A DNA stretch of 64,000 nucleotides from positions 402 to 64,401 of the forward strand of contig JAIBAJ010000004.1 in NCBI GenBank assembly GCA_019695265.1, written 5' to 3'. Below the pieces are notes generated by a model. The model was not told the DNA's origin. It did not search any database and was given only the letters and a program-made list of their open reading frames with translations. Of this stretch, positions 9,860 to 63,660 are shown in pieces. Numbering within the stretch: position 1 is the first letter of the stretch; each line of letters begins with the position of its first letter. The translations under genes were made by a program, and so were the position numbers. The DNA is from Bacteroidia bacterium (GTDB lineage: Bacteria; Bacteroidota; Bacteroidia; JAIBAJ01).

Positions 9860-10013
9860 GCGGGCCGCTTTCGCCATCGGAGTGATTATTAGACTCAAAC
9901 AGTTTCAATAGGCGAAATCGCCGGGCTATCCACTTCAAGTCCTCGTCGCCGAAGGCCCCGAAAGTGTTCGGGACCTTCGGCTCCTGTGGGCTTTCCGTTA
10001 CTATCCCTGCCCG
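9860..10013 (+). repeat. GC-rich structured intergenic element, copy I-1 (type I)
   Basis: Conserved blocks GCGGGCC...GGGCTATCC...TCCTCGTCGCC...CTCCTGTGGGC...CTATCCCTGCCCG. Lies 3' of the S8 gene on the same strand. The core may extend about 15 nt further 3'. Confidence 0.9.
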
Positions 10014-10147
10014 AAGGGCCTGTGCATCCTAGAAGCTTGGTACCTAATCTAAATCAGTCAACTCCTTGTATTTACAAAATTGGTTTTTAAGGCTATGGTA
10101 AACTTCGATTAGTTTACAATCCAAGGACTTTAATTGGAAGTAACTGC

Positions 10148-10155
10148 TATATTTG
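10148..10155 (+). promoter_or_regulatory. -7 box (TATATTTG) abutting the start codon of the TPR-like gene
   Basis: Exact TAnnTTTG. Its final G is 3 nt upstream of the ATG at 10159. Confidence 0.4.
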
Positions 10156-10158
10156 TGC

Positions 10159-11088
10159 ATGCCCTATCTGAAAGCCATTTTGATGTTTTTTGTCCTATTG
10201 CATGGTTTAATACCTGCTAATGCACAAAAGGGGGCGAGCTTATTAGATAAAACTGAACTGGGTTTTCAATTGGTTTATCAAAATAAATTTCGTTCAGCAG
10301 ATAGTTTGTTGCATCAAAATAAAATGCATCATCCACATCATTACCTCAACCATATTTTAGCCGCAAATATTTACTGGTGGAGGATTTTGTATGGTGAAAA
10401 ATCCGATAAACTCGATCAATTATTTACTTCCGAAGTTGACAGCGGAATGGCCTTGTTGGAGAAAATCGGAGTAGATCGTATGAACCATGAGCAATTGTTT
10501 TTGTATCTGAATTTGTATGGATTTCGTTCCAGGATTTATTTTAGGGAAAGATCCTATTTTAAGGCCATACAAACTTTCAGTGGAATTATGGGTTTGCTTA
10601 AAACCACCTTTGGTAAGGAACCTGAATTTGAACGATTTTACTTTACATCCGGCTTGTTTAATTTTTATACCGGTTCAGGAAGAGAGTATTCCAATGTAAT
10701 TAAAGCTGCATTGTTTGCTTTTCCGCCCAGTGATAAAATGAAAGGAATGGAGTACTTATATCGCCTTATTCATTCAAAGGATGTCATTATGAAGAATGAA
10801 AGTCGGTATTTTTTGCTTAAGATAAGTTTGGATCACATGAATAATTTCAAGGAATCGCTTCGGTTGTCTACTATGCTGGCAAAAGAATATCCAACCAATG
10901 CCTTGTATCAATATTATGTATTTAAGAACTTGGTAAAACTCAATCGGATGGAAGAAGCCAGAAAGGAATTGGCACATCTGGATTTGATTTTGATGGAGAA
11001 TCCAAGTATTAAGCCTGATTATATTAAATTTTGGAAAGGGAAAGCACAGGAAACATTGAAAAGGCATTACGAAGCTAGTGCTGATTAG
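10159..11088 (+). CDS. Secreted all-helical (TPR-like) hypothetical protein
   Basis: Signal peptide MPYLKAILMFFVLLHGLIPANAQ. The sequence is helix-rich. I chose the ATG at 10159 over the TTG at 10153. Confidence 0.55.
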   Translation: MPYLKAILMFFVLLHGLIPANAQKGASLLDKTELGFQLVYQNKFRSADSLLHQNKMHHPHHYLNHILAANIYWWRILYGEKSDKLDQLFTSEVDSGMALLEKIGVDRMNHEQLFLYLNLYGFRSRIYFRERSYFKAIQTFSGIMGLLKTTFGKEPEFERFYFTSGLFNFYTGSGREYSNVIKAALFAFPPSDKMKGMEYLYRLIHSKDVIMKNESRYFLLKISLDHMNNFKESLRLSTMLAKEYPTNALYQYYVFKNLVKLNRMEEARKELAHLDLILMENPSIKPDYIKFWKGKAQETLKRHYEASAD

Positions 11089-11332
11089 TAACAAGTTCGT
11101 TTTGGGATTAACATGGTTTCTTTAAGTGTCTCTAAAGAACCATTTTTCATTTTCATAATTTGGAAAGTATTATAGCCAAACACATTGGGAAAATTGGTCA
11201 TTGCAAAGTTGTAGGAAGTGGCAGAAATAAAAGATGTTCCAGGTAGGAATGATGTAAATTGCAGGGTAGTATTCGATTTGGAAGTTGAAATACGGAAGGT
11301 GGATTGTAGCACATCACTTGGGACGGAGCACC

Positions 11333-11479
11333 CGGGCAACGATAGAGCGTGATACCCCACAGGACTGTGCAGCGGTAGCGGAGCAGGCCGAGGAGTATTA
11401 GCGATAGCGTGACCCGAACGCACCTTATCAATAGTTGGGGGTAAGCAACTAGCTTTGGAGGTGCGGAAGGGGGCCCGCC
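11333..11479 (-). repeat. GC-rich structured intergenic element, copy II-1 (type II)
   Basis: The plus strand reads CGGGCAACGATAGAGCG...CCCCACAGGAC...CCGAGGAGTA...GCGATAGCGTGACCCGAACGC...GGGGGCCCGCC, the reverse complement of the element consensus. Lies 3' of fumC on the same (minus) strand. Confidence 0.9.
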
Positions 11480-11556
11480 AACTTTAGAAAAATAGGAATA
11501 AAAAAGCCGGATTTATTCTTAGTTAAACCCGGCTTTGGAAGGAAAATGGTCTCCTA

Positions 11557-12951
11557 TTATTTTGGGCCGATCATATCTTCAGGTCTTACCCATTGGGTGA
11601 ATTGCTCGTCGGTGAGCAAACCCAAGTCGATGGCAGCCTGGCGAAGAGTTTTGTTTTGTTTATGCGCTGTTTTGGCAATTTTAGCGGCATTTTCGTATCC
11701 AATATGCGGGTTAAGAGCCGTAACCAACATCAGAGAATTTTCCAAGTGTTTCTTAATAACTTCGTTATTTGCCTCAATTCCAACGGCACATTTATCATTG
11801 AATGAAACGCATGCATCGCCTATCAAACGGGCGCTTTGCAGTACATTGGCGGCGATGAGAGGTTTGAAAACGTTTAGTTCAAAATGACCTGTGGCGCCAC
11901 CTATAGAAACGGCTACATCATTTCCCATTACCTGGGCACAAACCATGGTCATGGCTTCGGGCTGTGTAGGATTTACTTTTCCGGGCATGATAGAGGATCC
12001 AGGCTCGTTGTCGGGGATAATAATTTCACCGATTCCGCTGCGTGGGCCTGAGCTTAACATACGGATATCGTTGGCGATTTTCATGAGGGAAACGGCAACT
12101 CTTTTCAATGCTCCGCTCAGTTCTACCATGGCATCGTGGGCGGCCAGGGCTTCGAATTTATTTGGGGCAGTAATGAACGGAAGGCCGGTGAATTCAGCGA
12201 TTTTTTGGGCAACCAAAACATCGTAACCTTTGGGGGCGTTTAGTCCGGTACCTACGGCGGTTCCACCTAGGGCCAGTTCACGAACAGCTTCCAGGGCGTT
12301 TTTAAGAGCACGTATACCATTGTTGATTTGTTGTACATATCCTGAAAACTCTTGTCCAAGGGTAAGAGGAGTTGCATCCATAAAATGGGTACGTCCAACT
12401 TTTACAATAGGTGCAAAGGCTTTAGCTTTGGCATCGAGGGTGTCGCGCAACAATTCCAAGCCCGGAATAGTAATCTCTACTACTTGTTTGTATGCTGCAA
12501 TATGCATAGCAGTAGGGTAGGTATCGTTGGAGCTTTGGGCTTTGTTTACATCATCGTTGGGGTGAAGTACTTTTTTATCGTCTAGTAAATTGCCACCTTG
12601 TACCACGTGGCCGCGGTTGGCGATTACTTCGTTGACATTCATATTGCTTTGTGTACCCGATCCGGTTTGCCAGATTACCAAAGGAAATTCGCCATCGAGG
12701 CTTCCGGTAAGGATTTCGTCGCAGACTTTAGAGATGAGGTCTCTTTTTTCGGCAGGGAGAATTCCAAGTTCGGTGTTTGCGTGGGCGGCCGCTTTTTTAA
12801 GGTAAGCAAAGGCGTAAATTACTTCCTTTGGCATGGAAGCTTCCGGACCAATTTTGAAGTTGTTTCGGCTACGTTCGGTTTGGGCTCCCCAGTATTTTTC
12901 GGCGGGTACTTTTACCTCGCCCATGGTATCGTGTTCGATTCTGAAACTCAT
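11557..12951 (-). CDS. fumC: Class II fumarate hydratase
   Basis: N-terminus [28 protein letters not shown] and signature [13 protein letters not shown]. 464 aa. Confidence 0.95.
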
Positions 12952-12967
12952 TGATGAAAATTTTGCT

Positions 12968-12975
12968 CCAAAGGT
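12968..12975 (-). promoter_or_regulatory. -7 box (TACCTTTG) for fumC
   Basis: Exact TAnnTTTG on the minus strand, 17 nt upstream of the ATG at 12951. Confidence 0.5.
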
Positions 12976-13068
12976 AGGAGCAATAAATGAATTTCAAAAC
13001 CTAGTTTAGGGAGATTTGGAAGGAAATTGGGTGATTTTTATCAAGGAAAGTCAATGAAATCTTGATTC

Positions 13069-14319
13069 TTATCTTTTCACAGTATTCACTTTTCCCCAAT
13101 CCATACCCGGGTCTGTTTTTACCTGGCCTTCGAAAGGTTTATCCGGATTGTATTGCACGTTTTCAGGAATAGCGGCTGCGTTTTTGGTTTCGATTTGAGA
13201 AACTGAGAAAAGCTGTTCAACTTTAAAATTGGCTTCTTCATTGGCGTCGAAGAGGTGCTTTTTGGTTAGTTTGGCAGCTCCATCTACATGAAAATAATCG
13301 GGATACCACCGATCATTAATTTCCCTAAAAGAGTATTTTTTTCGGTAATGAGGGTTTTCAACTTCGTAACCAAGGGCAAATAGGATGGGTTTAGCGGTTA
13401 ACGGAATTACGATGGAGGAATAGTAATCAATACTAACAATGGCGTAGGAATTGTTTTCGAGATAAATGCTGCCTTTTTGTTTTTCATGCTCCACTGTTCG
13501 TTTGGCTACAAAGTTTATAACCATAACCTCTTTGCCCTGAAAGGTGGTGGATGGGCCGAATTTGTATTCATATTTTTTAAAGTTATGGCTATCCAGAAAC
13601 AATTCGGTTTCACGAATAAAATCCATTTGGAGGATGGTTTCCGGACCGCCGAGTTCAAGCATTTCGGCTAATTCTCTGGTATCTACTTCTTTTCCTTTTT
13701 TAAGGTCTTTTTTTCGTTGTTTAGCGATGCGTTTATCTATTTTTTTTCGGATAAAACGTAGTTCAGTGATTTTCCCTTTTCGAAAAAGTTCTAGTTGGTG
13801 TTGGTTTTTAGACTTCGAGGCATAATTAGGATAATAGCTTTTAAAAACAGCTTCGGCATTATCGATGGGTTCATTGTTTTCCCAGATTTTCTCGTGATAA
13901 TAGCCTATGCTTTGAAAAGGTTTATTGGGGTAATTGTTTTTGATATTCCGCATTGCCAGCAAGATGTAATGCGTTGGTGGAAGGGGACGGACAACGACCT
14001 CCTGAAGGTTAACCGATTGAGCTTCGAGACGGATGATAGTACCTGACTTAAATTTGCCTACCTGTATTTTTTGACTCAGGTAACCCAGGTAATTGAATTG
14101 AATAGAATCATTTGCAGAACCTTCGGGCAGAAGGAGTTCAAATTCTCCTTTTTCGTTGGTGGTGGTTCCTATATTTGTTTTTTTAAGGCTAACTGATGCA
14201 AAGGCTAAGGAAGTGTTATTTTTTTTATCAACCACTTTGCCTGAAATTTTTATTTGGCCAATGCCTAGCAGGGGGAGCAGGCAGAGTAAAAATAAATAAG
14301 TATAGGATTTGGTATTCAA
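13069..14319 (-). CDS. Carboxypeptidase-regulatory-like domain protein, secreted
   Basis: ISGKVVDKKNNTSLAFASVSLKKTNIGTTTNEKGEFELLL is a typical CarboxypepD_reg N-domain. Signal peptide present. The only plausible start is the TTG at 14319. Confidence 0.6.
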   Translation of the reverse strand: MNTKSYTYLFLLCLLPLLGIGQIKISGKVVDKKNNTSLAFASVSLKKTNIGTTTNEKGEFELLLPEGSANDSIQFNYLGYLSQKIQVGKFKSGTIIRLEAQSVNLQEVVVRPLPPTHYILLAMRNIKNNYPNKPFQSIGYYHEKIWENNEPIDNAEAVFKSYYPNYASKSKNQHQLELFRKGKITELRFIRKKIDKRIAKQRKKDLKKGKEVDTRELAEMLELGGPETILQMDFIRETELFLDSHNFKKYEYKFGPSTTFQGKEVMVINFVAKRTVEHEKQKGSIYLENNSYAIVSIDYYSSIVIPLTAKPILFALGYEVENPHYRKKYSFREINDRWYPDYFHVDGAAKLTKKHLFDANEEANFKVEQLFSVSQIETKNAAAIPENVQYNPDKPFEGQVKTDPGMDWGKVNTVKR

Positions 14320-14607
14320 GGGTTGTTCGTATGAAAAGTGCTGATTCTACAAATGTTCACTTTTTTTTGGGAATTGCGATTAAAATTGTCATAAGAAATT
14401 TTAAATCTGTCTTTAATAAGTGGTTATAAGGTAGTAGAGCTAATTTTTGATAGCTAACTTTTCTAAAGAGAATCATCCAATTAATTGGTTGATATGATAA
14501 GCTTTTTTGAGGGAACTTAAGAATGAACCACAAAGAAGATTGTATTGATACTTAGGCAAATTAAAAAATATTAAGAAGCAGGAATTTGGAAATATGGAAT
14601 CCACCAT

Positions 14608-14615
14608 TACCTTTG
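14608..14615 (+). promoter_or_regulatory. -7 box (TACCTTTG) for SRP RNA
   Basis: Exact TAnnTTTG ending 5 nt before the predicted RNA 5' end. A TTTG at 14585-14588 sits at about -33. Confidence 0.65.
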
Positions 14616-14619
14616 CGCC

Positions 14620-14716
14620 GGGCAAGTCTTATACGACCAGCTCCTGGTGAACTCCCCCAGGTCAGGAATGAAGCAAGGGTATCCGGTTGTAGCGGTGCGA
14701 TGTAAGTAGCTTGCCC
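14620..14716 (+). ncRNA. ffs: Small (4.5S-type) signal recognition particle RNA
   Basis: Conserved domain IV sequence CCAGGTCAGGAATGAAGCAAGGG (compare CAGGUCnGGAAnGnAGCAG). The terminal helix GGGCAAG/CTTGCCC closes the molecule. A T-run follows at 14717-14722. Confidence 0.85.
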
Positions 14717-14720
14717 TTTT

Positions 14721-15665
14721 TTATTTTATGTTTGGGTCCTTCATTTTCCTTTTACCAAACATATAACCAATTCCTAATTTAGGTTGGAAGTTAATAGTTG
14801 AACCTGTTTCGAAATTAGACGATTTTTCAAGAAAAAATTTTGTATAACCGAATTCTCCACCCAAGTATGTCATAATTCTTGGATGAACGTTAGTCCTGAT
14901 ATATAACATAATGCTTGGTCTAATCATAAATCCATTTTGATCTGTTAATGTATTTAGGTTTGAGAAATAGGCCAATGCTGGAGGTTGAAGTGTTGTATTT
15001 TTCTCTTGGATGTACTTCAGGTTAATACGATATTTAAAGATTCCGGCATCCAATCTAAATCCCAAACAAAAGGATAATACACTGTTTTTAGGAAAGTAAT
15101 TTTGAATGCCAAATCCAAGGTATGCTGAATTTCCCAGAGCATTAAATCCAAGGAGAAAATGATCTAAGTCTCTAAAATGGAGTATGTTTTTGTTTAGATT
15201 GGAGCCTTGAAGAATGGTATTTTTATTTTTAACTGAAATAGAAACTGTGCCAATTAGACTTGATTTACCCGGAATGAAAAAATATTCATACTGAATACAA
15301 AAACGCTTGTAAATAAGTTCACCTAAATCAATACTTAAACTTTGTTTAGGGATAGGAAAGGAGTCGTTTTTACTGGAACTAACAAAAGTTTGGGGTTGAA
15401 TTTTTATCTTTTTAGATGAAAATTTTGGAGGGACGGAATATTGTTTAGAGCGAATTTGCTGCAGGTCAGAGATTGGAAAAATAAAATCCGGTCCATCCGG
15501 TAATTCCTTTTTACGAAATTGGATTTCATTTTTTCGTTTTTCAATTATTTTACCTACCACCCAATTACCGGATTGGAATTGCAGACTGTCTTGGGCAATG
15601 ACATCAAGATTTAAAATAAAGAGAAGCCCTACTACAACAGGTAAGAACAAATTCAAATACTTCAT
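14721..15665 (-). CDS. Hypothetical secreted protein, probable outer-membrane beta-barrel (tandem paralog B)
   Basis: The start MKYLNLFLPVVVGLLFIL at 15665 overlaps the upstream stop as ATGA. It shares the block EIQFRKKELPDGPDFIF with the upstream paralog. The C-terminal half is rich in alternating aromatic/Gly residues. Confidence 0.5.
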   Translation of the reverse strand: MKYLNLFLPVVVGLLFILNLDVIAQDSLQFQSGNWVVGKIIEKRKNEIQFRKKELPDGPDFIFPISDLQQIRSKQYSVPPKFSSKKIKIQPQTFVSSSKNDSFPIPKQSLSIDLGELIYKRFCIQYEYFFIPGKSSLIGTVSISVKNKNTILQGSNLNKNILHFRDLDHFLLGFNALGNSAYLGFGIQNYFPKNSVLSFCLGFRLDAGIFKYRINLKYIQEKNTTLQPPALAYFSNLNTLTDQNGFMIRPSIMLYIRTNVHPRIMTYLGGEFGYTKFFLEKSSNFETGSTINFQPKLGIGYMFGKRKMKDPNIK

Positions 15666-16657
15666 TCTTTCTCTTTGGATTGGCCAAAATTGTATCCTAA
15701 GCAAAAGCTTGGGTTAATTGAAATACCCATAAATCCATTAGCTAATTTTTTGGTATCTGTAAGAAGCATAGTGTATCCCATACTAGCCCCTAAACTCATG
15801 GAGAAATGAGGTGTTGGATTGTATCGGCCTCCGAGTTCAGCAAGAATGCGTACCATACCGCCAATTTTTCCGGTGGAGGAATACTGGAAATCATTATAAC
15901 TAGTATAACCGTCATTATCCGGATGATAGGTGTAAATGTTTTTTTTATAGACAAACGTTCCAAAATCGACCAAAATACCATAATAAAAATTTTTGTCCTT
16001 TAATCCCTTGGGATAATTTCTGAAACCCAGGCCTGTATAGAAAGAATTTCCAAAATTATTGTAAACTGTTAGCTGGGAGAAGGAGTAAATCGGAGCAAAA
16101 ATTTCTGTTGAATAATCATCAAAGATTGGTTTCAAAATGGGAACATAAGAGCCGGGAATCAAAGAGTTTTCTGAAAACCTAATTTGATCAGCCATAAAAT
16201 AAACTTTCTCATCTCTCATAGAGGCAGAGAATGGAATTCGGAATGAAAATTGATTCTTTTTTCCGAAACTATGTTCGTATGTAAATCCGATACGAAATAC
16301 ATTTAAATCAACTGTATTAAACCATAAACTATTTCTTTTGATGGTAAAAATTGCATTAGTTTTTGAAGATTCTTCACCGGGCAAAACAAAATCTTCATCA
16401 GTAGGTTCTACCTCCATCAATTCCAAATGTCCATTGGAAAATTTTATTCGGGTTACTTTACCTTTTGCATAAATAAAGTCCGGGCCATTAGGTAAAGCTT
16501 GTTTTCTGAAATTGACCTCGCCTTTATTGATTAAAAGTACCTTCCCAATTTCTTTTTTACCATTTGAAAGCCATAAGGTATCCTGACTAAAACCAAACCC
16601 TGCGCTACCAATGAAAACCAATAGAAAAAAGAAAAATTGTTTTTCTAAAAAGGTCAT
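15662..16657 (-). CDS. Hypothetical secreted protein, probable outer-membrane beta-barrel (tandem paralog A)
   Basis: Signal peptide present. Block EVNFRKQALPNGPDFIY is shared with paralog B. The C-terminus ends in FCLGYNFG. Confidence 0.5.
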   Translation of the reverse strand: MTFLEKQFFFFLLVFIGSAGFGFSQDTLWLSNGKKEIGKVLLINKGEVNFRKQALPNGPDFIYAKGKVTRIKFSNGHLELMEVEPTDEDFVLPGEESSKTNAIFTIKRNSLWFNTVDLNVFRIGFTYEHSFGKKNQFSFRIPFSASMRDEKVYFMADQIRFSENSLIPGSYVPILKPIFDDYSTEIFAPIYSFSQLTVYNNFGNSFYTGLGFRNYPKGLKDKNFYYGILVDFGTFVYKKNIYTYHPDNDGYTSYNDFQYSSTGKIGGMVRILAELGGRYNPTPHFSMSLGASMGYTMLLTDTKKLANGFMGISINPSFCLGYNFGQSKEKE

Positions 16658-16749
16658 TATATTTTGAAATTGATTTACTACAAAAATATTATAATTTTGT
16701 TATAATTAAATTAATTATTATGTAATTGAATCCTGATTTTGTTGAGGTG

Positions 16750-17859: not shown

Positions 17860-18071
17860 TTATTAATTAGCCAAAAGAAAAGAGACAACAAAATACTAAG
17901 TAGAATACTTGACATCATTGGAAAATAGATTTTAGTATGACCGGATTGAAAACTGAAATCACCGGGCAAGTTTCCAAAGCTTGGGGTTTTATCTTTAAGG
18001 ATAAAAAAAAGTAAACCCAATAAGAAAACAATTCCACCAAGTAGCATCATAACTTTTCCCAAATTTGCCAT
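17850..18071 (-). CDS. DUF2905-family small membrane protein
   Basis: GNLPGDFSFQSGHTKIYFPMMSSILLSILLS matches the DUF2905 pattern. I chose the ATG at 18071 because the longer ORF would run into the divergent gene. Confidence 0.55.
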   Translation of the reverse strand: MANLGKVMMLLGGIVFLLGLLFFILKDKTPSFGNLPGDFSFQSGHTKIYFPMMSSILLSILLSLFFWLINKWK

Positions 18072-22642: not shown

Positions 22643-22723
22643 TGGTGGATAGGGGTTAAACCCCATAGGTTCTGCTGGAAAGTCAATTATATCGAATCAA
22701 TTATTTTTTAAAATACGAGTTAT

Positions 22724-22864
22724 GCGGGCCCCCTCCGCCCAACACTTGGTTGGCTAAACCCCAAGCAACTTGTCAGGGCGTTCGGGTCACGCTATCGGCT
22801 GTAGTCCAAGCCACTCCGCTAAACGCTGCGTTGGCTTGGAGCTACTTGCCTCTATCGTTGCCCG
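22724..22864 (+). repeat. GC-rich structured intergenic element, copy II-2 (type II)
   Basis: GCGGGCCCCCTCCGCCC...GGGCGTTCGGGTCACGCTATCGGCTGTAGTCC...GGAGCTACTTGCCTCTATCGTTGCCCG. Lies 3' of the VCBS gene on the same strand, between convergent genes. Confidence 0.9.
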
Positions 22865-22946
22865 AGGCGCAACCTCTAAGTTTAAATGCTAAGCTAACTT
22901 GTAACGGTATCTATGAGCTTCCTGCAAAGGGAATCATTTTCAAACC

Positions 22947-34310: not shown

Positions 34311-34366
34311 TTGGATTTTTTAAACCAGATTCAGCAGCATCTTGTTGAGTGTGGTCAAGTTTATTT

Positions 34367-34517
34367 GGCGGGTCCCCGGCAACCCTCCCCGGCTTTTTTA
34401 TTTTATTTCGAACGGATATTAACCGGGTTGCCGCGTCGGGCTATTCGTTCCTAGTCCTCGTCCCCCTAGGCTAACGCCGTCGGGGTCCTGTGGGCTATCC
34501 ACTGCTATCCCTACCCG
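34367..34517 (+). repeat. GC-rich structured intergenic element, copy I-2 (type I), left member of a head-to-head pair
   Basis: GGCGGGTCC-CGGCAACCC...GGGTTGCCG...GGGCTATTCG...TCCTCGTCCCC...GTCCTGTGGGCTATCC...CTATCCCTACCCG. Lies 3' of arfB on the same strand. Confidence 0.9.
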
Positions 34518-34605
34518 GAAGTGTCGTGCAAACCCTGACTTTCGGCCTTTTAATTGTATGTTACCTGCAATTATTCAGGAAATGCATAACTGTTTGGGTT
34601 TGGGT

Positions 34606-34746
34606 CGGGCAACGATAGAGCCAAATAACCCACAGGATACCGCAGCCTTAGCGGAGGTAGCCGAGGATTATGGGCGATAGCGTGACCTTTTCGCATGCAC
34701 AATGTCTGTTGGTTGAGATAAATTTTATAGCGAAAAGGGGCCCGCA
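34606..34746 (-). repeat. GC-rich structured intergenic element, copy II-3 (type II), right member of a head-to-head pair
   Basis: The plus strand reads CGGGCAACGATAGAGCC...CCCACAGGATACCGCAGCCTTAGCGGAGG...GGGCGATAGCGTGACCTTTTCGC...GCGAAAAGGGGCCCGCA. Confidence 0.9.
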
Positions 34747-34981
34747 TAAAAATTATCCTAGAAGCTAACTACCTACAAAGAATGATTTTGTTCATGAAAG
34801 CAAATCCAAAAAAGACGCTTACAGGTTTGAAAACCCTTGTCGGAACTAAACCATTGCAACTGAAAATAGTCGAAACACCATAAATTGGACAAGATGATTA
34901 AAGTCAGGATTGGTTGATATGTAACAATTGTAACCTTAATTTTGGTGGAGTAGACTCACTTTTGCTGAAAAATTATTTCAA

Positions 34982-45567: not shown

Positions 45568-45621
45568 TTCCTAAAGAATTTGCATATTTAGGTAGTACTA
45601 AATGCAGTTTTTGATGATGAT

Positions 45622-45757
45622 GCGGGTGCCTTCGCATTCACCTATTGCCTCTTTCTAAAATGTAGTAAGGCTCAGGCCCGGGCTATCGCTGTTACTCCTC
45701 GGTCCACTACGCTAAGGCTGCGTGGCCCTGTGGGGTAACTTGCTCTATCCCTACCCG
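45622..45757 (+). repeat. GC-rich structured intergenic element, copy I-3 (type I), left member of a head-to-head pair
   Basis: GCGGGTGCCTT...AAGGCTCAGGCCCGGGCTATCGCTGTTACTCCTCGGTCC...CGCTAAGGCTGCG...CCCTGTGGGGTAACTTGCTCTATCCCTACCCG. Lies 3' of the STAS gene on the same strand. Confidence 0.9.
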
Positions 45758-45861
45758 GACCCAAGCCCGAACTTTTGGGAAATGGATATACAATTTTGCT
45801 CATCCAGGGTGTTGGTGTGTTGATTACCCGGTCATTGCTGCAACTGTTTGGTTTTGCAGCC

Positions 45862-46005
45862 CGGGCAACGATAGAGGCGAGTAGCTCCCGGCAGAAATGG
45901 CTTCAGTGCGTTGGCAGCCGGGACTACAGACGATAGCGTGACCCGAAGCCCATTCCCAAAACTTATATATTTAAATAAATTTCAGTTGGGCGAAGGGGGC
46001 CCGCC
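45862..46005 (-). repeat. GC-rich structured intergenic element, copy II-4 (type II), right member of a head-to-head pair
   Basis: The plus strand reads CGGGCAACGATAGAGGCGAGTAGCTCCCGGC...GCCGGGACTACAGACGATAGCGTGACCCGAAGCCC...GGGCGAAGGGGGCCCGCC. Lies 3' of the minus-strand gene 46258..46677. Confidence 0.9.
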
Positions 46006-46203
46006 AAAAAACAAATGGAATAATTGGAAAGTTATACCGAATGTACATTATGTTTAGTCCAATTTTAGGTATTAATTTTTATTGAGAAAATTGGCCTAAC
46101 ATTCTGTATACTCGGCATTTACCAATCTAAATTTATAAAAGCCTTCGGACTATTTATAAATTAAAATTGGTATTAAATTTCTGTATTCCGGACCAACCGG
46201 TTC

Positions 46204-56329: not shown

Positions 56330-56370
56330 GGAATGGTTGAATTATTAAACTGCTTATTCAAATTTGAAAG

Positions 56371-56886: not shown

Positions 56887-57045
56887 TGCAGAATTGGTTG
56901 GACAATAAACTTTAGCACGGGGAATGGTACAGGTAAGAGAAGAGCCAGCTAATACCGGTTGTAAATTTTGTACTATTCTGATTTTGATGCACCATGGTAT
57001 GCCTATGTAGCTTTTGCATCGGCATATACCAATCCAAATGAAGGT

Positions 57046-58269
57046 TTATTGGATAATAAGTTCAATACGTTCATTGAAGCGCATAGCATCCAAATCCTGA
57101 TTACCTTTCTCATCTGTTTCCGGGAGAAGGGGAGCGGCAGATCCCAAACCAACCGGTTTGATTCGGTTTGGATCCATACCTAATTTAATGAGCCAATTGC
57201 TAAGTTCGGTGGCACGACCAAAGGAAAGGTTTTTGCGTGTTTCTTCACTTCCGATAGAAGAGGTATGAGCCTGAATGGTGAATTTTTTACCGGATTGAGA
57301 TTTTGCCAATTGATTCAGTTTTTCGAGTGCAAAGGTGCTTTGAGCTGCGATACGCTCTTTAAAAAACTCGAATCGAATGTTTTGAAAAGTAGCTTTGTTT
57401 TTAAACAATTGAATGGGGCGAATAAGTTTAGAAAACTCAGCTTGAATCGGAAAATCGACCAAGGCCCAAAAAGGTAGTAGGTTTGGACAAGTAAATTCGA
57501 TATGGTATGGTTTTCCGACGGGAAGGCTAAGCAGGTATTTACCGGTTTTACTATTGGAATTGAATTCACCGAATAGTTCACCGGTGCCGGAATCCCAAAC
57601 TTTTATTTCGGCTCGAATGGGGTTGCCGGTTTCGTCAATCACAGAGCCGGAGAAAAGAGTTACAGCGCCTGAGGGGCCTAAATCCTGGTTTGAAAAACTT
57701 ACCGGATCTTTTACCGGTTTGTTTTTTTGTGCCATGCAGGCTGCTATTCGTTCTTCAATGATTTTATCGAGATCGTAAATGATTGTTTTTTCAGCGGTGT
57801 AAGGTTGTCTTTCTGTGCTAAAGATAGAATAGGCCCAGGTTGAAATTTTCTTTTGTTTGAGTTGTGCTGAGGAAAGTGTGTTTTTGTATTCCCTGTATTT
57901 GCTAATGGCTAATTTGGTTTCACCACCCAGTTCATAGGCTCGAGCCAGCATAAATTCAAGGTCGTCATCGAGGTTAGGGGAATAGTCGAAGCAGCGTTTT
58001 AGGTAAGGAATGGCCTTAACTGCTTCGGCAGAATCGAGGTGGAGGTAGCAAATGCCAATTTTTAGGAGAAGAGAGTTATCGTCTCTTTTCTTTTTTTCGG
58101 CTTCCTGGAAGAAGTACAGGGCTGCGGAAAAGTCGGGAGGTGACTTTTTCATTTGAAAGTCTCCCTTTTCGATGAGTTGTTCTGGTTTATCCTGAGCAAG
58201 TAGGCAAGCAGGGTGGAGTAAGAGTAGAAACCCCGCAAGCAGAAAAAGGATATGTAATTTGGCTTTCAA
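57046..58269 (-). CDS. TPR/OmpA-family outer-membrane-associated protein
   Basis: N-terminal TPR-like region. The C-terminal OmpA-like domain ends in ...AMRFNERIELIIQ. TTG start (only CTG/TTG are available before the upstream in-frame stop). Confidence 0.7.
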   Translation of the reverse strand: MKAKLHILFLLAGFLLLLHPACLLAQDKPEQLIEKGDFQMKKSPPDFSAALYFFQEAEKKKRDDNSLLLKIGICYLHLDSAEAVKAIPYLKRCFDYSPNLDDDLEFMLARAYELGGETKLAISKYREYKNTLSSAQLKQKKISTWAYSIFSTERQPYTAEKTIIYDLDKIIEERIAACMAQKNKPVKDPVSFSNQDLGPSGAVTLFSGSVIDETGNPIRAEIKVWDSGTGELFGEFNSNSKTGKYLLSLPVGKPYHIEFTCPNLLPFWALVDFPIQAEFSKLIRPIQLFKNKATFQNIRFEFFKERIAAQSTFALEKLNQLAKSQSGKKFTIQAHTSSIGSEETRKNLSFGRATELSNWLIKLGMDPNRIKPVGLGSAAPLLPETDEKGNQDLDAMRFNERIELIIQ

Positions 58270-58280
58270 CAGCTTTTTCC

Positions 58281-60269
58281 TTAGTTTTTAAGGATTTCGA
58301 ACTCAATTCGGCGGTTTAGTGCCATGCCTTCCGGGTTTTCGCTTCCGTCTTTGTTTTTGTTGGAAGCAACCGGCATAGATTCACCAAAACCAACTGCTTT
58401 GAGGCGATCGGCGGCAATTCCTCTTTTGACAAGGGCTTGTAGAACCGATTCGGCTCGTTTTTGAGAAAGGGTTTTGTTGTACGCTTCTTCTCCTTTATCG
58501 TCGGTATAGCCGTTGATTTGTATTTGTACTTCGGGGAAGGCTTTTAAGAATTGGGCCAGACGGTTTAATTCGTTTAGTGATTCCTGGCGAAGTTCGTATT
58601 TGTCAGAGTCGAAGAAGAGGTTGTTAAGGGCAATTCGGGTTCCTGGTTTAGCCTTTTTAAGTTCGATGGCTTTTTCTACTTTTCGGAAGTCTTTGGCTGG
58701 TTCGATCAGGAAGTTTTCGGTATGGAAGAGGTAATCGTCTTTAATTACGGCAATGCCATAGTTTTTACCGGAAGGTAGGGAAACCACATATTTACCTGTT
58801 TTGCTGTTGGAAACCAATTCGGCTACTACTTCATTTTTTTCATTATCGATAATTTGGATTCCGGCTTCGGTTGGTGCTTTGGATTTTTCGTCGGTGATGG
58901 AACCGGTAACCAGGGTAAGCGGGCTGAACGGTTGGTCTTTTTTATTGTTTTTGGGGATGCTAACGCTGTAAATGTCATAATCACCCATACCGCCCGGACG
59001 TGCAGAGGAGAAGTACCCTGTTTCACCGCTGGCCGAAAGCACAAAGAAAATATCGTCATCGGGGGTATTGATTGGTGAACCCATATTAACGGGTTGGCTC
59101 CATTTTCCATCTTTGAAAACTGCTTTAAAAATGTCGTAACCGCCCATGGAATTATGTCCGTTGGAGCTGAAATACAAGGTTTTGCCATCGGGGTGGAAGA
59201 ATAGACCATCTTCATCATAGGCTGTATTTATTTCGGGACCCAGGTTTTGTGCCGGACCCCAATTGCCTTTTTCATCTTTTTTAGACCAGTAGATATCTCT
59301 GCCGCCCAGGCCTCCGTTTCCGTCCCGGGTAAAGAACAGGGTTCGTTCGTCGGCGCTCAGAGAGATGGAGTGTTCCGTTGCGGAGGAATTAATATTTTCG
59401 TTGAGTTTAACCGGTTTGGTCCATTGGTCACCATCCAGACGGCTTTGGTAGATATCGCCGTTGAGGAAGAGGAAAATGGTTTGGCCATCGGCTGATAATC
59501 CCAGGGCTGCATCGTGCTTTTTGGTATTTAAGGGAGCTCCCACATTGGAAGCTTCGGTCCATTGGTTGTTAATGTTGTAGGAACGGTAGATGTCTTCAAA
59601 AGGCAGTTCGTCGAATGGGTCTAAACCACCGGAGGAATTTCGGCGGGAGGTGAAATAGAGTTCTGATTCATCGGCTGAGATAATGGGAGCATAATCCGGT
59701 TTGTCGGAGTTAAGTTTAGCTCCCAGGCTTTGGATTTTAACCTGTACCGGATGTTTAAGCAATTCGATACCGTTTCTACATTCCTGAATGCGTTTATCCA
59801 TTATTTTGGAAGGGTTGCTAATGCTCATTTCTCCATTGACATCGGGAGGAGTATTGACCATGAGGGTTCCGATGGTATTGTCGAGTTTAATGGAAGAGGT
59901 TTTTTTGGAATCCAGGTAGTTTTTGTAGGCAATGTATTGTTCAATTGCTTTATCGAATTGTTGATTAAGGTGATAAGCTCTGGCAAGCAGGAAACTACGT
60001 TCGGTGGATTGGGTAGTGGCCGATTTTTCGAGGTATTTTAGGGCTTTGGGTTTTTCGGAGGAATGTAAATAAGCGATTCCCAACAAAAAATTAGCTTCAC
60101 TATTTGCCGGAGAAGCAGCTATTTCTTTCTGAAGCAGTTCAATTGCTTTTTTGTTTTGACCTGGTTCGTCGTTTAGGAGGTGTTTTACCTCGTCGAGGGA
60201 CGATTGAGCAGAAGAAAGTAAGCTGGAGGTAGCAATAAAAAAGAGGAAGATGGTTGCCTTTTTTACCAT
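58281..60269 (-). CDS. TPR + TolB-like beta-propeller (PD40) + OmpA C-terminal domain protein
   Basis: PD40-like repeats (ELYFTSRR, TLFFTRDG, TLYFSSNG, GYFSSAR). OmpA block INGYTDDKGEEAYNKTLSQKRAESV...NRRIEFEI. Confidence 0.8.
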   Translation of the reverse strand: MVKKATIFLFFIATSSLLSSAQSSLDEVKHLLNDEPGQNKKAIELLQKEIAASPANSEANFLLGIAYLHSSEKPKALKYLEKSATTQSTERSFLLARAYHLNQQFDKAIEQYIAYKNYLDSKKTSSIKLDNTIGTLMVNTPPDVNGEMSISNPSKIMDKRIQECRNGIELLKHPVQVKIQSLGAKLNSDKPDYAPIISADESELYFTSRRNSSGGLDPFDELPFEDIYRSYNINNQWTEASNVGAPLNTKKHDAALGLSADGQTIFLFLNGDIYQSRLDGDQWTKPVKLNENINSSATEHSISLSADERTLFFTRDGNGGLGGRDIYWSKKDEKGNWGPAQNLGPEINTAYDEDGLFFHPDGKTLYFSSNGHNSMGGYDIFKAVFKDGKWSQPVNMGSPINTPDDDIFFVLSASGETGYFSSARPGGMGDYDIYSVSIPKNNKKDQPFSPLTLVTGSITDEKSKAPTEAGIQIIDNEKNEVVAELVSNSKTGKYVVSLPSGKNYGIAVIKDDYLFHTENFLIEPAKDFRKVEKAIELKKAKPGTRIALNNLFFDSDKYELRQESLNELNRLAQFLKAFPEVQIQINGYTDDKGEEAYNKTLSQKRAESVLQALVKRGIAADRLKAVGFGESMPVASNKNKDGSENPEGMALNRRIEFEILKN

Positions 60270-60354
60270 GATTTTAAGTATGTAGGTATTTTTTAACGAC
60301 TGCCTTGGTAAAAAGGTTCGATTGGAAATGTGAAGGTAGATTGGGCTTGCACCC

Positions 60355-60508
60355 CGGGCAACGATAGAGCCAAGTAGCCCACAGGAGCCCGGCGCCCGAA
60401 TTTATTCGGGGCGGTGGGCGACGAGGACTACAGGCGATAGCGTGACCTGAACGCCTTGCACCAGGTTTAGGTAAAGATCAAAAGCCGCTTGGCGTGAAGG
60501 GGCCCGCC
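60355..60508 (-). repeat. GC-rich structured intergenic element, copy II-5 (type II)
   Basis: The plus strand reads CGGGCAACGATAGAGCCAAGTAGCCCACAGGAGCCC...GGGCGACGAGGACTACAGGCGATAGCGTGACCTGAACGCC...GGCGTGAAGGGGCCCGCC. Lies upstream of, and co-oriented with, the minus-strand OmpA gene. Confidence 0.9.
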
Positions 60509-60572
60509 AAATAAAACAACTCCCACCAACATTGGCAATAAATAACCACCTTTGTCGCAGAATTTTAAACAC

Positions 60573-61754
60573 ATGAGTTCAAGTTTTCTAACCCATCTTC
60601 AAAACGAATTACAATCGATTGAAACGGCAGGATTATTTAAAAGGGAGCGAATTATTACCGGTCCGCAAGGTGCTGATATTCAAATTAGTACAGGGCAAGA
60701 GGTAATAAATTTTTGTGCTAATAATTACCTTGGATTATCGTCTCATCCAAAAGTGTTGGAGGCCGCAGCAAAGACCCTTGAAACCCATGGTTATGGCATG
60801 AGTAGTGTTCGATTTATTTGCGGTACACAAGACATTCATAAAGAGTTGGAGGAAAAAATTTCTGACTTTTTGGGTTTGGAAGATACCATTTTGTATGCGG
60901 CAGCTTTTGATGCCAATGGAGGTGTTTTTGAACCTCTGTTTGGTGAGGAGGATGCCATTATAAGTGATGAGTTAAACCATGCCAGTATTATTGATGGAGT
61001 AAGGCTTTGTAAGGCTAAACGTTACCGATATAAAAACAATGATATGAACGATTTGGAAGCCCAACTTAAAGCGGCAGATGGAGCTCGTTTTAAAATTGTG
61101 GTTACCGACGGGGTATTTAGCATGGATGGATATATTGCTCAATTGGATAAAATAAGGGCTTTGGCCGATCGATACGGGGCTTTGGTGATGACAGATGAAT
61201 GTCATGCCCTGGGCTTTTTGGGTTCTACCGGACGAGGAACCCCGGAGCATTGTGGGGTACATGGTAAAATTGATATTGTTACCGGTACCTTAGGTAAGGC
61301 TTTGGGAGGAGCCATGGGAGGTTTTACTTCGGGTAAGAAAGAAGTTATAGCTTTATTGCGTCAGCGCAGTCGTCCATATTTATTTTCCAATTCTTTGGCA
61401 CCAGCCATAGTTGGAGCCAGCATTGCCGTGATGGATATGTTAAATGAAACTACGGCATTACGTGATAAAGTGATGGAAAACGCTTTGTATTTTAGAAAGG
61501 GAATGACGGAAGCAGGATTTGATATTAAGCCCGGAATTCATCCCATTACCCCGGTGATGTTATACGATGCCAAATTGGCTCAATCTTTTGCCGAAAAATT
61601 GTTGGCTGAAGGCATCTATGTCATTGGATTCTTTTATCCGGTGGTGCCGAAGGAGCAGGCCAGAATTCGGGTTCAGGTATCGGCAGCGCATGAAAAACAT
61701 CACCTGGATAAAGCCATTGCAGCATTTACTAAAGTTGGAAAGGAATTGTTATAA
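60573..61754 (+). CDS. kbl: Glycine C-acetyltransferase (2-amino-3-ketobutyrate CoA ligase)
   Basis: [25 protein letters not shown] and TLGKALGG (PLP Lys). I chose the ATG at 60573 over the TTG at 60552. Confidence 0.9.
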
Positions 61755-62336
61755 ATGAAAGTTACCTCAGCCCAATTTATTTCCAGTGTAGCTTCTTTAT
61801 CAGCTTGTCCTAAAACCGGTTTTAAAGAATATGCGTTTATTGGACGAAGCAATGTGGGGAAATCCTCTCTCATTAATGCTTTGCTCAACCGGAAAGACTT
61901 GGCTAAAACCAGTTCAAGACCGGGAAAAACTCAAACCATAAACCACTTTTTGGTAAATGAGGCCTTTTACCTGGTCGATTTGCCCGGTTATGGCTATGCT
62001 AAAGTGAGGATTGAAAGCCAAAACAAATGGGAGAAGTTTGTGAACGATTATATTTTGAAAAGGGAAGAAATGGTGCAGTTGTTTGTATTGGTTGATAGCA
62101 ATATTCCCCCACAAAAAATTGATTTAGAGTTTATAAACTTCCTGGGAATTAATTCGGTACCCTTTTCGATAGTGCTCACAAAAACCGATCGGATCAGCAA
62201 GACAGAATTGGTGAAAAGTCAGGTAGCTTTGGAGAAAAAGCTTTTGGAATATTGGGAAGAATTGCCGGTGATAACCAAGGTGTCGTCGGAAAAAAGAATA
62301 GGATTGGATTTGATTTGGGAGCGTATGCAGGCTTAA
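61755..62336 (+). CDS. engB: Ribosome biogenesis GTP-binding protein YihA/YsxC
   Basis: GRSNVGKSSLINAL (G1), DLPGYGYA (G3) and LTKTDR (G4). Confidence 0.9.
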   Translation: MKVTSAQFISSVASLSACPKTGFKEYAFIGRSNVGKSSLINALLNRKDLAKTSSRPGKTQTINHFLVNEAFYLVDLPGYGYAKVRIESQNKWEKFVNDYILKREEMVQLFVLVDSNIPPQKIDLEFINFLGINSVPFSIVLTKTDRISKTELVKSQVALEKKLLEYWEELPVITKVSSEKRIGLDLIWERMQA

Positions 62337-63424
62337 TCCACCGGATTGACGGACACTGTAGGTATTTGCCCTTGTTCCAGCAAGGCATTGACATGGTCAA
62401 TAAATTCCATTTTTCCTTGCAGGGAAGTGGCTAAGGTATAAACCGATAAAAAGTTTTTTGCTAAACCTTTCTTTTTCAGGTGCAATTCCAGGGGAAGGGA
62501 AAAGTTCATTGGGTTTGAAAACGACACATCCATGTCGGGCGATTGTTCTTTTACTACTCCCGGTGCAACCAGGAAACGTTTGGCAGTTGTATCCTGGGTA
62601 CACGTTTCATTTTTAAGCACATCGCGGTTAAGTGAGTTGCAGAGCCTATGTGGAATGGTGGTAATACCAATTTTATTCAACTGTGAGTGTTGAGCCAATT
62701 TGTACAAGGTAATAAAATCAATAGGTTTGGAGGGTTTGGAGGTGGTAGAATAATAACGGGCCAGTTGAGGTTCGAGTAAATAGATTTGATTGTTTAGCAA
62801 AATTATGGGAGCTGAGTGAACCGGATTAACCTCTCCTTTGTCATCGTAAAAGGAAAAGGAAAGGATGCCCGATTCAAAGCCCAATTCCTGGAGAAGGGTG
62901 GTGGTAAAATCGGCAAATCCACCGCAATTGGCCGAAGTTTTATCGCGTTGAAAAGCTAACAGTTTGTCTTTTGCAGAAGTAAATGAAAAGCTAAGTCCTT
63001 CGTTGTAATCGCCTTCGTTAACATGTTCATATACAAAACTTAATACCATTTCCAGTTGTTTCCAGGTATCAGTTGTAGTTTTTATTTTGTTCACAAACTG
63101 TTCATATTCCTGTTGTATTTCCTGCGATGATTTATTCTTATAAGGTAGGAATTTGCCTTTGTAATACTGGATAGAATCCAGTTTTTTCAATTGATATGCC
63201 TGGTTTTCGGGCGACATTGTTTGGGCAAGCTCGAGCAGAAGAATTTTGGATTGATATTCTGCCAGTTTACAGCAGGTATCGCTTTTTACAATGGAAAGGA
63301 TTGAATCGCGATTGATTTTCAAACCGGTTTGGGCGAGGGTGTTAAAATTAAGTCCGGCGAATACCCAGGTCAATAGTGGAACAAGAAGGGAGAGAGAAGT
63401 TTTCACGTGTGCAATAATATTCAA
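62333..63424 (-). CDS. Secreted hypothetical protein, possibly transglutaminase-like cysteine peptidase fold
   Basis: ANCGGFADFTTTLLQELGF...VHSAPIILL...LLEP resembles the Cys/His/acid arrangement of transglutaminase-like domains. TTG start (alternative GTG six codons in). Confidence 0.4.
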   Translation of the reverse strand: MNIIAHVKTSLSLLVPLLTWVFAGLNFNTLAQTGLKINRDSILSIVKSDTCCKLAEYQSKILLLELAQTMSPENQAYQLKKLDSIQYYKGKFLPYKNKSSQEIQQEYEQFVNKIKTTTDTWKQLEMVLSFVYEHVNEGDYNEGLSFSFTSAKDKLLAFQRDKTSANCGGFADFTTTLLQELGFESGILSFSFYDDKGEVNPVHSAPIILLNNQIYLLEPQLARYYSTTSKPSKPIDFITLYKLAQHSQLNKIGITTIPHRLCNSLNRDVLKNETCTQDTTAKRFLVAPGVVKEQSPDMDVSFSNPMNFSLPLELHLKKKGLAKNFLSVYTLATSLQGKMEFIDHVNALLEQGQIPTVSVNPVD

Positions 63425-63525
63425 AGATACTATTCGAAGTTTATTTTTATATCCGTGGAATGGATTCCGTAGTCAATTGATTCGCAAATAGTTGCCAAGT
63501 CGGTTGTTAAAAAAATGTATTATTG

Positions 63526-63660
63526 GGCGGGCCCATCGCAGAAGTGGAGTGTTTCAAAAGAGCAGAAGCAAGGCGAATGGCCGGGCTATCGCCTGTACTC
63601 CTCGTCGCCCTTGGCTAGCGCCGCGGGCTCCTGTGGGGTACCTGGCTCTATCCCTGCCCG
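63526..63660 (+). repeat. GC-rich structured intergenic element, copy I-4 (type I)
   Basis: GGCGGGCCCATCGC...GCGAATGGCCGGGCTATCGCCTGTACTCCTCGTCGCCC...GGGCTCCTGTGGGGTACCTGGCTCTATCCCTGCCCG. I counted 87 G+C in 135 nt. Lies upstream of, and co-oriented with, the gene starting at 63904. Confidence 0.9.

Follow-up and report, generated by a model that had tools for sequence, protein, structure and literature searches.

A folded intergenic repeat related to Flavo-1 is copied as tail-to-tail doublets in a narrow lineage of uncultured Bacteroidia

The 64,000-nucleotide (nt) stretch of DNA analysed here (the window; positions 402 to 64,401 of contig JAIBAJ010000004.1, assembly GCA_019695265.1, from a Bacteroidia bacterium) raises the question of what kind of element is repeated nine times between its genes. 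An initial reading of the letters by themselves (the sequence-only reading) had described nine copies of a GC-rich element, about one per 7 kb, that it could not assign to a known family, and had suggested either a structured RNA or a non-autonomous mobile element. We built a covariance model, R1, from these nine copies and scanned it over the whole window with filters off. R1 matched exactly the nine copies (108–141 bits, E values of 1e-21 to 1e-27), each within 3 nt of its reported position and in its reported orientation, with no tenth match in the window at E<=1. Similarly, a pattern representing the 3′ core, CCTGTGGGNTN8CTATCNNTRCCCG, had 7 matches in the window against 0.00 expected from 100 shuffles. 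The copies, at a density of 9 per 64 kb, have a G+C content of 0.50–0.64 compared with 0.33–0.47 for 1-kb segments of the window (the 87/135 counted earlier in one copy agrees with the 0.64 of copy c9 in Table 1), and their alignment makes the proposed common order of blocks visible. Profile scans of the open reading frames (ORFs) of the window placed all nine copies between Pfam-supported genes and found no transposase, integrase or reverse transcriptase among the 40 ORFs scanned, nor any frame resembling a RAYT (a transposase associated with repetitive extragenic palindromes, REPs), in line with what had been reported.

A single module of the element is about 145 nt long and forms a three-way junction composed of a closing stem (P1; CGGGC/GCCCG), a hypervariable hairpin (P2) and a long arm (P3–P7) whose internal loops hold the invariant blocks GCUAUC, UCCUCG, CCUGUGGG and CUAUC. 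In particular, RNAalifold analysis of the nine window copies gave 31 consensus pairs, 16 of them with compensatory changes, and the minimum free energy (MFE) fold of c9 is the complete junction, with P1, the P2 hairpin and the long arm. The alternative blocks (GGGTCAC/CCGG)GCTATC and CTATC(CCT/GTT)G that the sequence-only reading had listed separately are real, yet they are the two sides of one covarying helix; in the nine-copy fold, (CAC/GGG)GCTAT and CTATC(GTT/CCT) lie opposite each other. Among 150 further copies, 88.3% of cells were paired as against 78.5% in shuffles, 20 pairs changed on both sides, and pairing was only 31–48% in a control in which partners were slid by 1–3 columns. Because the sequence is GC-rich the folding z-scores are weak (−0.4 to −4.0), and the argument for structure therefore rests on covariation together with conservation between orthologs. 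These findings demonstrate that the element is a folded module, and support the earlier description of a structured, multi-copy repeat far longer than classical REPs. Nor is it a tRNA, a CRISPR repeat or an ordinary terminator: at gathering thresholds, Rfam recognises nothing in the window except a signal recognition particle (SRP) RNA, and the element has its run of T residues before the structure and none after it, the reverse of an intrinsic terminator.

At lenient thresholds, the only Rfam family matched repeatedly was the Flavo-1 RNA motif (RF01705; Weinberg et al. 2010, PMC2864571), for which the gathering score is 42 bits. Two window copies, c1 and c4, gave sub-threshold Flavo-1 matches (Table 1), the other seven gave none at E<=1, and 64 kb of a related genome, OZ260106.1, gave nine matches of 27.4–36.5 bits. 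Every one of these matches sits on the arm, on the strand opposite to that in which the sequence-only reading had oriented the copies (hereafter the original strand). Judged by the gathering score, the copies fall short of Flavo-1 (best scores 30.3 bits in the window and 36.5 bits in OZ260106.1). Judged by internal-loop blocks, they agree with it: c4 aligns to the full length of the model (positions 1–76) with GGGAUAG...GAUAGCCCG in its hairpin, and the arm and the published seed have GGGAUAG..CCCACAG..CGAGGAC..GAUAGCCCG in common. (Seed sequences from Flavobacterium have CCCACAG and GCGAGGAC, the blocks of the seed alignment being GGGAUAG..CCCACAG..GCGAGGAC..GAUAGCCCGAC.) Moreover, seed sequences taken together with their flanks, and five Flavobacterium copies, all display on the original strand a run of T residues, GGGCGUG, a hairpin, the arm and a closing CACGC. 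Genuine copies of Flavo-1 thus carry an unannotated P1/P2 domain, and Flavo-1 as modelled is therefore an arm of this same junction.

The element thus represents a known family that has not been characterised, in a new variant that is expanded and full-length, and the copies in the window are diverged relatives of Flavo-1 with a different P1. The two are alike in being found in the phylum Bacteroidota in several copies per genome, in the helix and internal-loop layout of the arm, and in having no known function, the literature assigning none to Flavo-1. They differ in that the Rfam model covers the 76-position arm alone, and does so on the strand that the G.U pairs speak against; in that P1 is GCGUG/CACGC in Flavobacterium and CGGGC/GCCCG here; and in that the window-type element is about 30 times denser and occurs in doublets, whereas Flavobacterium has five copies in 930 kb, all of them solitary. 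The statement that the element belongs to no recognisable family can therefore no longer be upheld. The sequence-only reading had taken a significant match to a named family as grounds for giving up novelty; the repeated Flavo-1 matches do so in a weak sense only, since all of them score below the gathering score.

Outside the window, a scan of reference genomes in 8-kb blocks found the core pattern in at least 120 of them, about 113 of which come from OZ260106.1, an uncultured Bacteroidia metagenome-assembled genome of 4.43 Mb, and five from a contig that duplicates part of it; R1 detected 164 copies in 800 kb of OZ260106.1. No R1 match was found in 1.48 Mb around the fumarase genes of 80 other Bacteroidota; viral contigs had no match, and only 23 metagenomic contigs had one. 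The variant does not extend beyond a narrow lineage of uncultured Bacteroidia, in which it is very dense. Copies in the window are 65–78% identical to the nearest copies in OZ260106.1, so that at least two diverged genomes carry the expansion. (Contig CBDIPL010000005.1, of 94.8 kb and labelled 'Sediminibacterium sp.' bin07, which holds our loci L005, L014, L055 and L067, matches positions 3.74–3.77 Mb of OZ260106.1 in scores and spacing; it is from the same sample, CRY1, and is probably a wrongly binned duplicate of that region.)

Neighbouring copies no more than 600 nt apart were arranged +/− with their 3′ ends facing in 45 of 48 pairs, with spacers of 71–419 nt. These tail-to-tail doublets had escaped the sequence-only reading, as had a RAYT-like gene flanked by the element in the related genome (see below). 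Partners within a doublet are 63% identical, compared with 66% for random pairs of copies, which rules out inverted duplication or concerted evolution of the partners. Of 42 doublets, 31 are heterotypic, combining an arm with a GG/CC-type P3 (type A) with one of another P3 type, and in the pairs of the window the + partner is always of the GG/CC type and the − partner always of the AC/GT type (type B). When copies were compared together with 400 nt of flanking sequence, similarity between loci began 0–19 nt before the 5′ end of a copy and continued through the spacer into the partner, for 468–532 nt at 90–95% identity (two such stretches measure 532 nt at 90.6% and 468 nt at 95%). In the youngest pair of doublets examined, identity extends from the junction of TTATTTG with GCGGG to that of CCCGC with CAAA; one P2 hairpin is entirely exchanged and the rest is 95% identical. 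These findings demonstrate that the unit that is copied consists of two tail-to-tail modules and their spacer, measures about 400–530 nt and is bounded by the outer 5′ ends. Two inverted repeats and a spacer that replicate as one are what define a REPIN (a doublet of inverted REPs), and the earlier suggestion of a non-autonomous mobile element fits because whole doublets have been duplicated at many loci.

The ends of the module are sharply defined. Directly before GCGGG, on the strand of the copy, every copy has a T-rich leader that ends in ATT(T/A)G; in 183 copies, positions −4 to −1 were T (167), T (175), T or A (117 and 58) and G (162). At the 3′ end, conservation stops right after CCCG(G/A), information content being about 0 beyond. 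The element is not a short palindrome of 20–40 nt with a 5′ foot of the GTAG type, as a REP would be: the tetranucleotide at the corresponding position varies (GUAG, CUAG, AUAC and others) and is base-paired, and the conserved foot is ATT(T/A)G.

Two further observations concern the doublets and their spacers. In metagenome contig OGVT01001401.1 (L431), the left flank is that of the L103 doublet (248/248) and the right side that of the L075 doublet (~94–95%), with the switch inside the repeat; this reflects either recombination between distant doublets or an assembly chimera. In addition, many doublet spacers contain palindromic repeats of ~170–190 nt that are 87–99% identical and are related to a 179-nt insertion at L070 ~2180–2360, between the RAYT-like gene and the left-hand copy. 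This insertion, which contains TTTAACCCAGATTACGCATTAGAAACCGTAATGAAGCTTTCAAATGCAATAA, is present in OZ260106.1 and absent from the relative L422, and a similar sequence abuts the L033 doublet (~7040–7090).

Once resident, copies are strongly conserved at their sites. In four comparisons between moderately diverged orthologs, substitutions in the core numbered 1/85, 0/101, 0/89 and 0/95, when the P2 apex differed by 5–38%, adjacent intergenic DNA by 12–59% and the neighbouring genes by 4–22%. (Several of the comparators are short-read metagenome contigs; the pattern recurs in four independent assemblies.) At deeper divergence, where genes are 72–85% identical, the core differs by 6–19%, the P2 apex by 40–59% and downstream intergenic DNA by 55–63%, and the changes in the core include compensatory double substitutions in P3, P5 and P6. 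Copies from the window fit this picture: c3 has 0/141 changes in a 98.5%-identical relative (L412), c6 and c7 are both present in a 96%-identical one (L411), and c6 is present in an 84%-identical one (L410) with a core difference of 1/85. Since the copy-specific sequences of the arms are retained, homogenisation by other copies does not explain the constancy of the core. These findings demonstrate that resident copies are kept by selection at individual sites and are not decaying junk. The P2 apex (for example, window positions 45641–45672) stands apart, differing by 38–59% between orthologs with a near-identical core, and in one arm of the doublets L033 (7480–7530) and L075, otherwise 95% identical, P2 has been wholly exchanged; this hypervariability suggests either swapping of modules between copies or a complete absence of constraint.

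The element might be an ordinary MITE (a miniature transposable element with inverted repeats), a deletion derivative of a DDE-type insertion sequence in which the 145-nt modules are long, degenerate terminal inverted repeats. The copy number and intergenic location of the element, the inverted termini of the doublet (TTATTTGGCGGGCC...GGCCCGCCAAATAA) and the presence of other, clearly mobile MITE-like repeats in the same genomes would all agree with this. However, target-site duplications are absent at every offset examined: 175 of 183 single copies had no abutting direct repeat, and for 41 doublets none of the offsets of 0–9 and lengths of 2–5 exceeded shuffled pairings. Furthermore, the arms are heterotypic and only ~63% identical, each covaries for an internal fold for which a terminal inverted repeat has no need, and no recurrent transposase was found in ~1 Mb, the only recurrent families among neighbouring proteins being DUF4143 ATPases and ordinary paralogs. 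Finally, the cores are conserved at orthologous sites, whereas true MITEs nearby come and go between 96%-identical relatives. We therefore consider an ordinary MITE very improbable. Bacterial MITEs such as Correia/NEMIS, RUP, BOX and ERIC are small, non-coding and intergenic, fold when transcribed and can affect the expression of neighbouring genes; they end in terminal inverted repeats, duplicate their target (TA for Correia), covary little internally and differ from strain to strain. The element differs in its covariation, its lack of a target duplication and its persistence at orthologous sites. One MITE-like repeat of a separate family, of ~130 nt, lies beside c7 (46035–46164) and is 89% identical to L027:2986–3129 of OZ260106.1. 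It is absent from the 96%-identical L411, in which positions 650–662 align to both sides of the gap and may mark a target duplication of ~13 nt. Its presence and absence between close relatives has the look of a freely mobile MITE, unlike the element.

Evidence on which strand folds comes from base pairs and from energies. Counted over the consensus pairs, cells with G.U and A.C stand at 377:34, which favours the original strand over that of Rfam. Two invariant G.U pairs contribute 278 of the 377, and the remainder includes intermediate states at covarying pairs (for example, GC 67 / AU 43 / GU 34 / AC 0). By contrast, mean MFE is −50.1 kcal/mol on the Rfam strand and −47.3 kcal/mol on the original strand; RNA parameters make the Rfam strand more stable in 140 of 189 copies (the original strand in 49), and DNA parameters do so in 178 of 189 (the original strand in 11). 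This preference arises because pyrimidine mismatches become G.A pairs on the Rfam strand. Both strands fold as mirror-image three-way junctions with similar z-scores and, as a doublet has one module in each orientation, either of its strands shows both forms.

This symmetry raises the possibility that the element acts as DNA, as a protein-binding or cruciform site for the nucleoid, supercoiling or replication, in the manner proposed for bacterial interspersed mosaic elements (BIMEs) with gyrase and IHF. Such a site would accommodate the mirror-image folds, the stability of the Rfam strand with DNA parameters, the symmetric doublets, the lack of bias relative to transcription or replication, and the T/A-rich leader beside every module, which would ease local melting. 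Nevertheless, the G.U:A.C ratio and the series GC, AU, GU without AC at covarying pairs point to a single functional strand, and no candidate binding protein was identified. On balance we regard a DNA-level role as distinctly improbable, if somewhat less so than a MITE origin.

The element might instead be a cis-acting structured RNA, the true full-length Flavo-1, that is bound by a conserved protein in the 3′ part of mRNAs or as a small RNA of its own and that has been multiplied by recombination or duplication without a RAYT. Strong covariation, the invariant G.U pairs on the original strand, purifying selection on the core with compensatory changes between orthologs, and loop sequences kept from Flavobacterium to this Bacteroidia lineage all speak for an RNA. 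So may its location: of 30 solitary copies between convergent genes, 24 have the stop codon of the gene that runs into them closer to their 5′ end (p=7e-4), at a distance of ~60 nt, and canonical terminators upstream of the copies are rare (3/202), a number that also eliminates an upstream terminator hairpin as the target for insertion. However, this 5′-side asymmetry could equally reflect doublets with an eroded partner, and co-directional regions show no bias in orientation relative to the genes (33 vs 31 for all copies, 20 vs 16 for solitary ones). The element is not followed by a terminator, and the leader fails as a Bacteroidetes −7 promoter box (TAnnTTTG), the conserved A being two positions out of register. 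MFE favours the opposite strand, and the Flavo-1 matches of F. psychrophilum overlap transcripts in either sense or antisense orientation, or lie in untranscribed DNA (PMC9723704). Whole doublets with sharp ends have been copied to unrelated loci, which resembles transposition. We consider this explanation unlikely, although it is the strongest of the alternatives.

The account that we tentatively prefer, and to which we give a little less than even credence, is that the element is a full-length form of Flavo-1 that has multiplied greatly in one lineage and behaves as a REPIN-like non-autonomous repeat, mobilised by a RAYT-type enzyme and with a folded core that is used by the cell. In this scheme an HUH/Y1 enzyme of the RAYT type would copy the element from a folded single strand, the replicating unit being the tail-to-tail doublet with its spacer. 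The folded core would probably be bound by a protein where transcription units end and there be of use to the cell; by analogy with REP and BIME elements, it may protect or insulate the 3′ ends of mRNAs. In keeping with such a position, copies typically start ~60 nt after a stop codon, and convergent intergenic regions are over-represented among their sites (65 convergent, 64 co-directional and 21 divergent). A bolder form of this proposal, which we hold to be doubtful, is that Flavo-1, an orphan motif since 2010, is no small-RNA gene at all but one arm of a three-way-junction module. Spreading as inverted doublets in the manner of REPINs, this module would have been taken up by its hosts as a genome-wide cis-element, its invariant loops read by a dedicated protein at hundreds of gene ends.

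A candidate for the enzyme is encoded in OZ260106.1. The gene at L070:1470–2114 (−), the only one of its kind found by motif scan and profile search in ~1 Mb, specifies a 214-amino-acid (aa) RAYT-like (HUH/Y1) protein with the motifs NHIH..WQ..YIKTNP, which scores 49 bits against the NCBIfam model REP_Tyr_transpos (cut-off 80) and has no Pfam match. It lies between a + copy and a − copy of the element, an enclosure that recurs in the 88%-identical relative L422. Enclosure by inverted copies is the hallmark arrangement by which RAYTs are paired with their repeats, although the link is weak here. The gene also contains an in-frame perfect palindrome, GTAGAGACGCAAAATTTTGCGTCTCTAC (translated ..VETQNFASL..), and tandem GGRGDVVDD repeats; the protein has thousands of homologs, and those designated P0002–P0117, from Bacteroidota and other phyla, have one or several VETQNFASL-type insertions at differing positions. 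In many homologs these insertions are encoded by a GTAG..CTAC palindrome, as has been described for RAYT subclass 2.4 (PMC6006769). We rejected this palindrome as the abundant repeat, as it is unique in ~1 Mb of OZ260106.1. Four tandem ORFs of 126–129 aa with a GIY-YIG nuclease domain were seen as well, at L083:2767–4651 (−) in OZ260106.1, and a small ORF directly upstream of the RAYT homolog in L424 (~280–420) has a translation that, by eye, resembles GIY-YIG proteins.

Several observations weigh against mobilisation of the element by such an enzyme. The association with a RAYT is known from a single locus in one lineage, ~1–2% of sampled genes are enclosed by wide +/− pairs, and what lies within other such pairs includes a HigB toxin pair, a DUF4143 ATPase, ORFs of unknown function and an aminotransferase. 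R1 had no match at 80 homologous RAYT loci in other genomes, Flavo-1 had none at the 20 of these 80 scanned with Rfam, and the 65%-identical RAYT homolog in L424 is not flanked by the element; together these loci rule out the element or Flavo-1 as a general flank of the L070 family. With its GTAG..CTAC palindromes, this family resembles subclass 2.4, whose usual partners are short REPs, and no RAYT is known for the genome of the window, represented by a 73-kb contig. A strand bias between replichores of the kind seen for IS200/IS605 was not found: solitary copies number 23+/20− and 31+/28− on the two replichores (set by GC skew), and consequently the orientation on the lagging-strand template typical of that family is not seen. 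The folded strand is ambiguous, the G.U:A.C ratio and MFE pointing opposite ways. No pair of filled and empty sites was found for the element, so that mobility is deduced from the duplicated doublets alone. Lastly, the REP of the RAYT-2.6 of F. johnsoniae is a separate 35-nt element.

That last repeat had been a candidate for the 5′ domain of Flavo-1, which we rejected because it is a stand-alone repeat of ~35 nt whose conservation ends at GCGCTATCGG. The repeat (cTTTGCGGGCACGGATTgCAAATCCGCGCTATCGg; the RAYT-2.6 'REP' of F. johnsoniae, Quentin et al.) is spread over dozens of Flavobacterium species, in which at least 120 8-kb blocks contain it, often as head-to-head pairs 70–200 nt apart (L281–L400, for example L298:1459–1597), the reverse of the arrangement in the doublets of the element.

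Set against known systems, the preferred REPIN-like account has its closest parallel in the REPINs and REP-BIMEs of Proteobacteria. REPINs are described as two REPs in inverted orientation that RAYTs are believed to mobilise. The element shares with them an extragenic location, hundreds of copies, an inverted doublet as the replicating unit, the absence of target-site duplications, a single-strand fold, long persistence at orthologous sites and, at L070, a single-copy RAYT-like gene flanked by inverted repeats. It differs in that its unit is a 145-nt three-way junction rather than a 20–40-nt hairpin with a GTAG foot, in that its two arms are ~63% identical and of different subtypes, and in that its link to a RAYT is found at one locus in one lineage and is not general. 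RAYTs of Bacteroidetes have been associated with atypical structures, and subclass 2.6 is specific to Bacteroidetes (Quentin et al. 2018, PMC6006769). The structured repeats of class 3 and subclass 2.6 TnpA-Y1 genes described there likewise combine atypical secondary structures beside Y1 genes with further copies in the rest of the genome, ~600 in the case of Solibacter usitatus; the published subclass 2.6 structures, however, are short hairpins, the F. johnsoniae sequence TTGCGGGCACGGATTNCAAATCCGCGCTATCG resembles only the first 35 nt of the element, and the L070 RAYT resembles subclass 2.4. As in the palindrome-associated transposable elements of IS200/IS605 type, there are no classical terminal inverted repeats and no target-site duplication, folds are subterminal and ATTTG abuts one end; by contrast with these, in which one strand has a left end and a right end that are distinct, the doublets are symmetric, and replichore bias is absent. 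No TnpA or TnpB of the IS200 type was found near the element by profile scans of its neighbours and of ~1 Mb.

Table 1 Copies of the element and associated features in the window.
Feature	Positions	Strand	Type or layout	Score or remark
Copy c1	9857–10015	+	Type A (P3 GG/CC)	R1 108.4 bits; alignment
c1 arm, sub-threshold Flavo-1 match	9915–10015	−		30.3 bits
Copy c2	11331–11481	−	Type B (P3 AC/GT)	R1 126.3 bits
Copy c3	22721–22866	+	Type B, solitary	R1 114.7 bits
5′ boundary example (c4)	34350–34369	+	T-rich leader ending ATT(T/A)G, then GCGGG	
Doublet c4/c5	34365–34748		Tail-to-tail, 5′ ends outward	84-nt spacer (model coordinates)
Copy c4	34365–34519	+	Type A	R1 114.2 bits; Flavo-1 match on arm 26.4 bits
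Copy c5	34604–34748	−	Type B	R1 141.3 bits
Doublet c6/c7	45619–46007		Tail-to-tail	100-nt spacer (model coordinates)
Copy c6	45619–45759	+	Type A	R1 121.1 bits
Copy c7	45860–46007	−	Type B	R1 109.7 bits
Copy c8	60353–60510	−	Type B, solitary	R1 129.0 bits
Copy c9	63524–63662	+	Type A, solitary	R1 127.8 bits

The genes near the window copies (Table 1) have ordinary functions, among them a subtilase, a fumarase, FG-GAP proteins, PAP2, ArfB, an MBL-rhodanese, a STAS protein, OmpA-family proteins and aminotransferases. Copies c1 and c2 form a wide +/− pair around an ORF of 311 aa (10153–11088, +) that has no Pfam match; no relative of it was found in a JGI metagenome scan, and its exact sequence is absent from the protein collection. 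On its other side, c2 lies downstream of the fumarase gene (11557–12951, −) and of the terminator-like hairpin of that gene. Convergent genes for an FG-GAP protein and PAP2 flank c3, and c8 is in a divergent region between an OmpA-family gene and an aminotransferase gene, as identified with Pfam. At two loci syntenic with the c4/c5 doublet (L415 and L421) a single (−) copy occupies the site. Beyond their 3′ ends, the type B copies (34580–34605, 45835–45861, 11305–11332, 22865–22890 and 60330–60354) have a loose tail, (G)NGCAANCC(C)AA(A)C, of which CAAACAGTT, common to c5 and c7, is an example; the tail is not seen in the overall 3′-flank logo of the copies in OZ260106.1. The SRP RNA mentioned above (14613–14720, +) is of the small Bacteroidales type (RF04183, 104 bits) and supports the taxonomic placement of the window.

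Flavo-1 is one of many computationally identified bacterial motifs that lack a known function. The hundreds of diverged copies per genome described here allow the motif to be redrawn as a complete three-way junction, call its annotated strand into question, and show it to act like a doublet repeat and not like a gene. Because the Rfam model misses these copies, annotation leaves 1–3% of such genomes unexplained, and the repeats break or chimerise short-read assemblies. Two properties that are usually separate are found together in this element, namely that a defined unit is copied as a transposon would be and that individual resident copies are under strong purifying selection, with compensatory changes. 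REPIN–RAYT research argues that such a combination marks a long-term partnership between host and element, and with the present findings this idea would come to include Bacteroidota and a far more elaborate fold. If the bolder proposal on Flavo-1 is true, the element would be a giant REPIN of a new class that has a function for its host, in a phylum in which the biology of REPINs is essentially unexplored.

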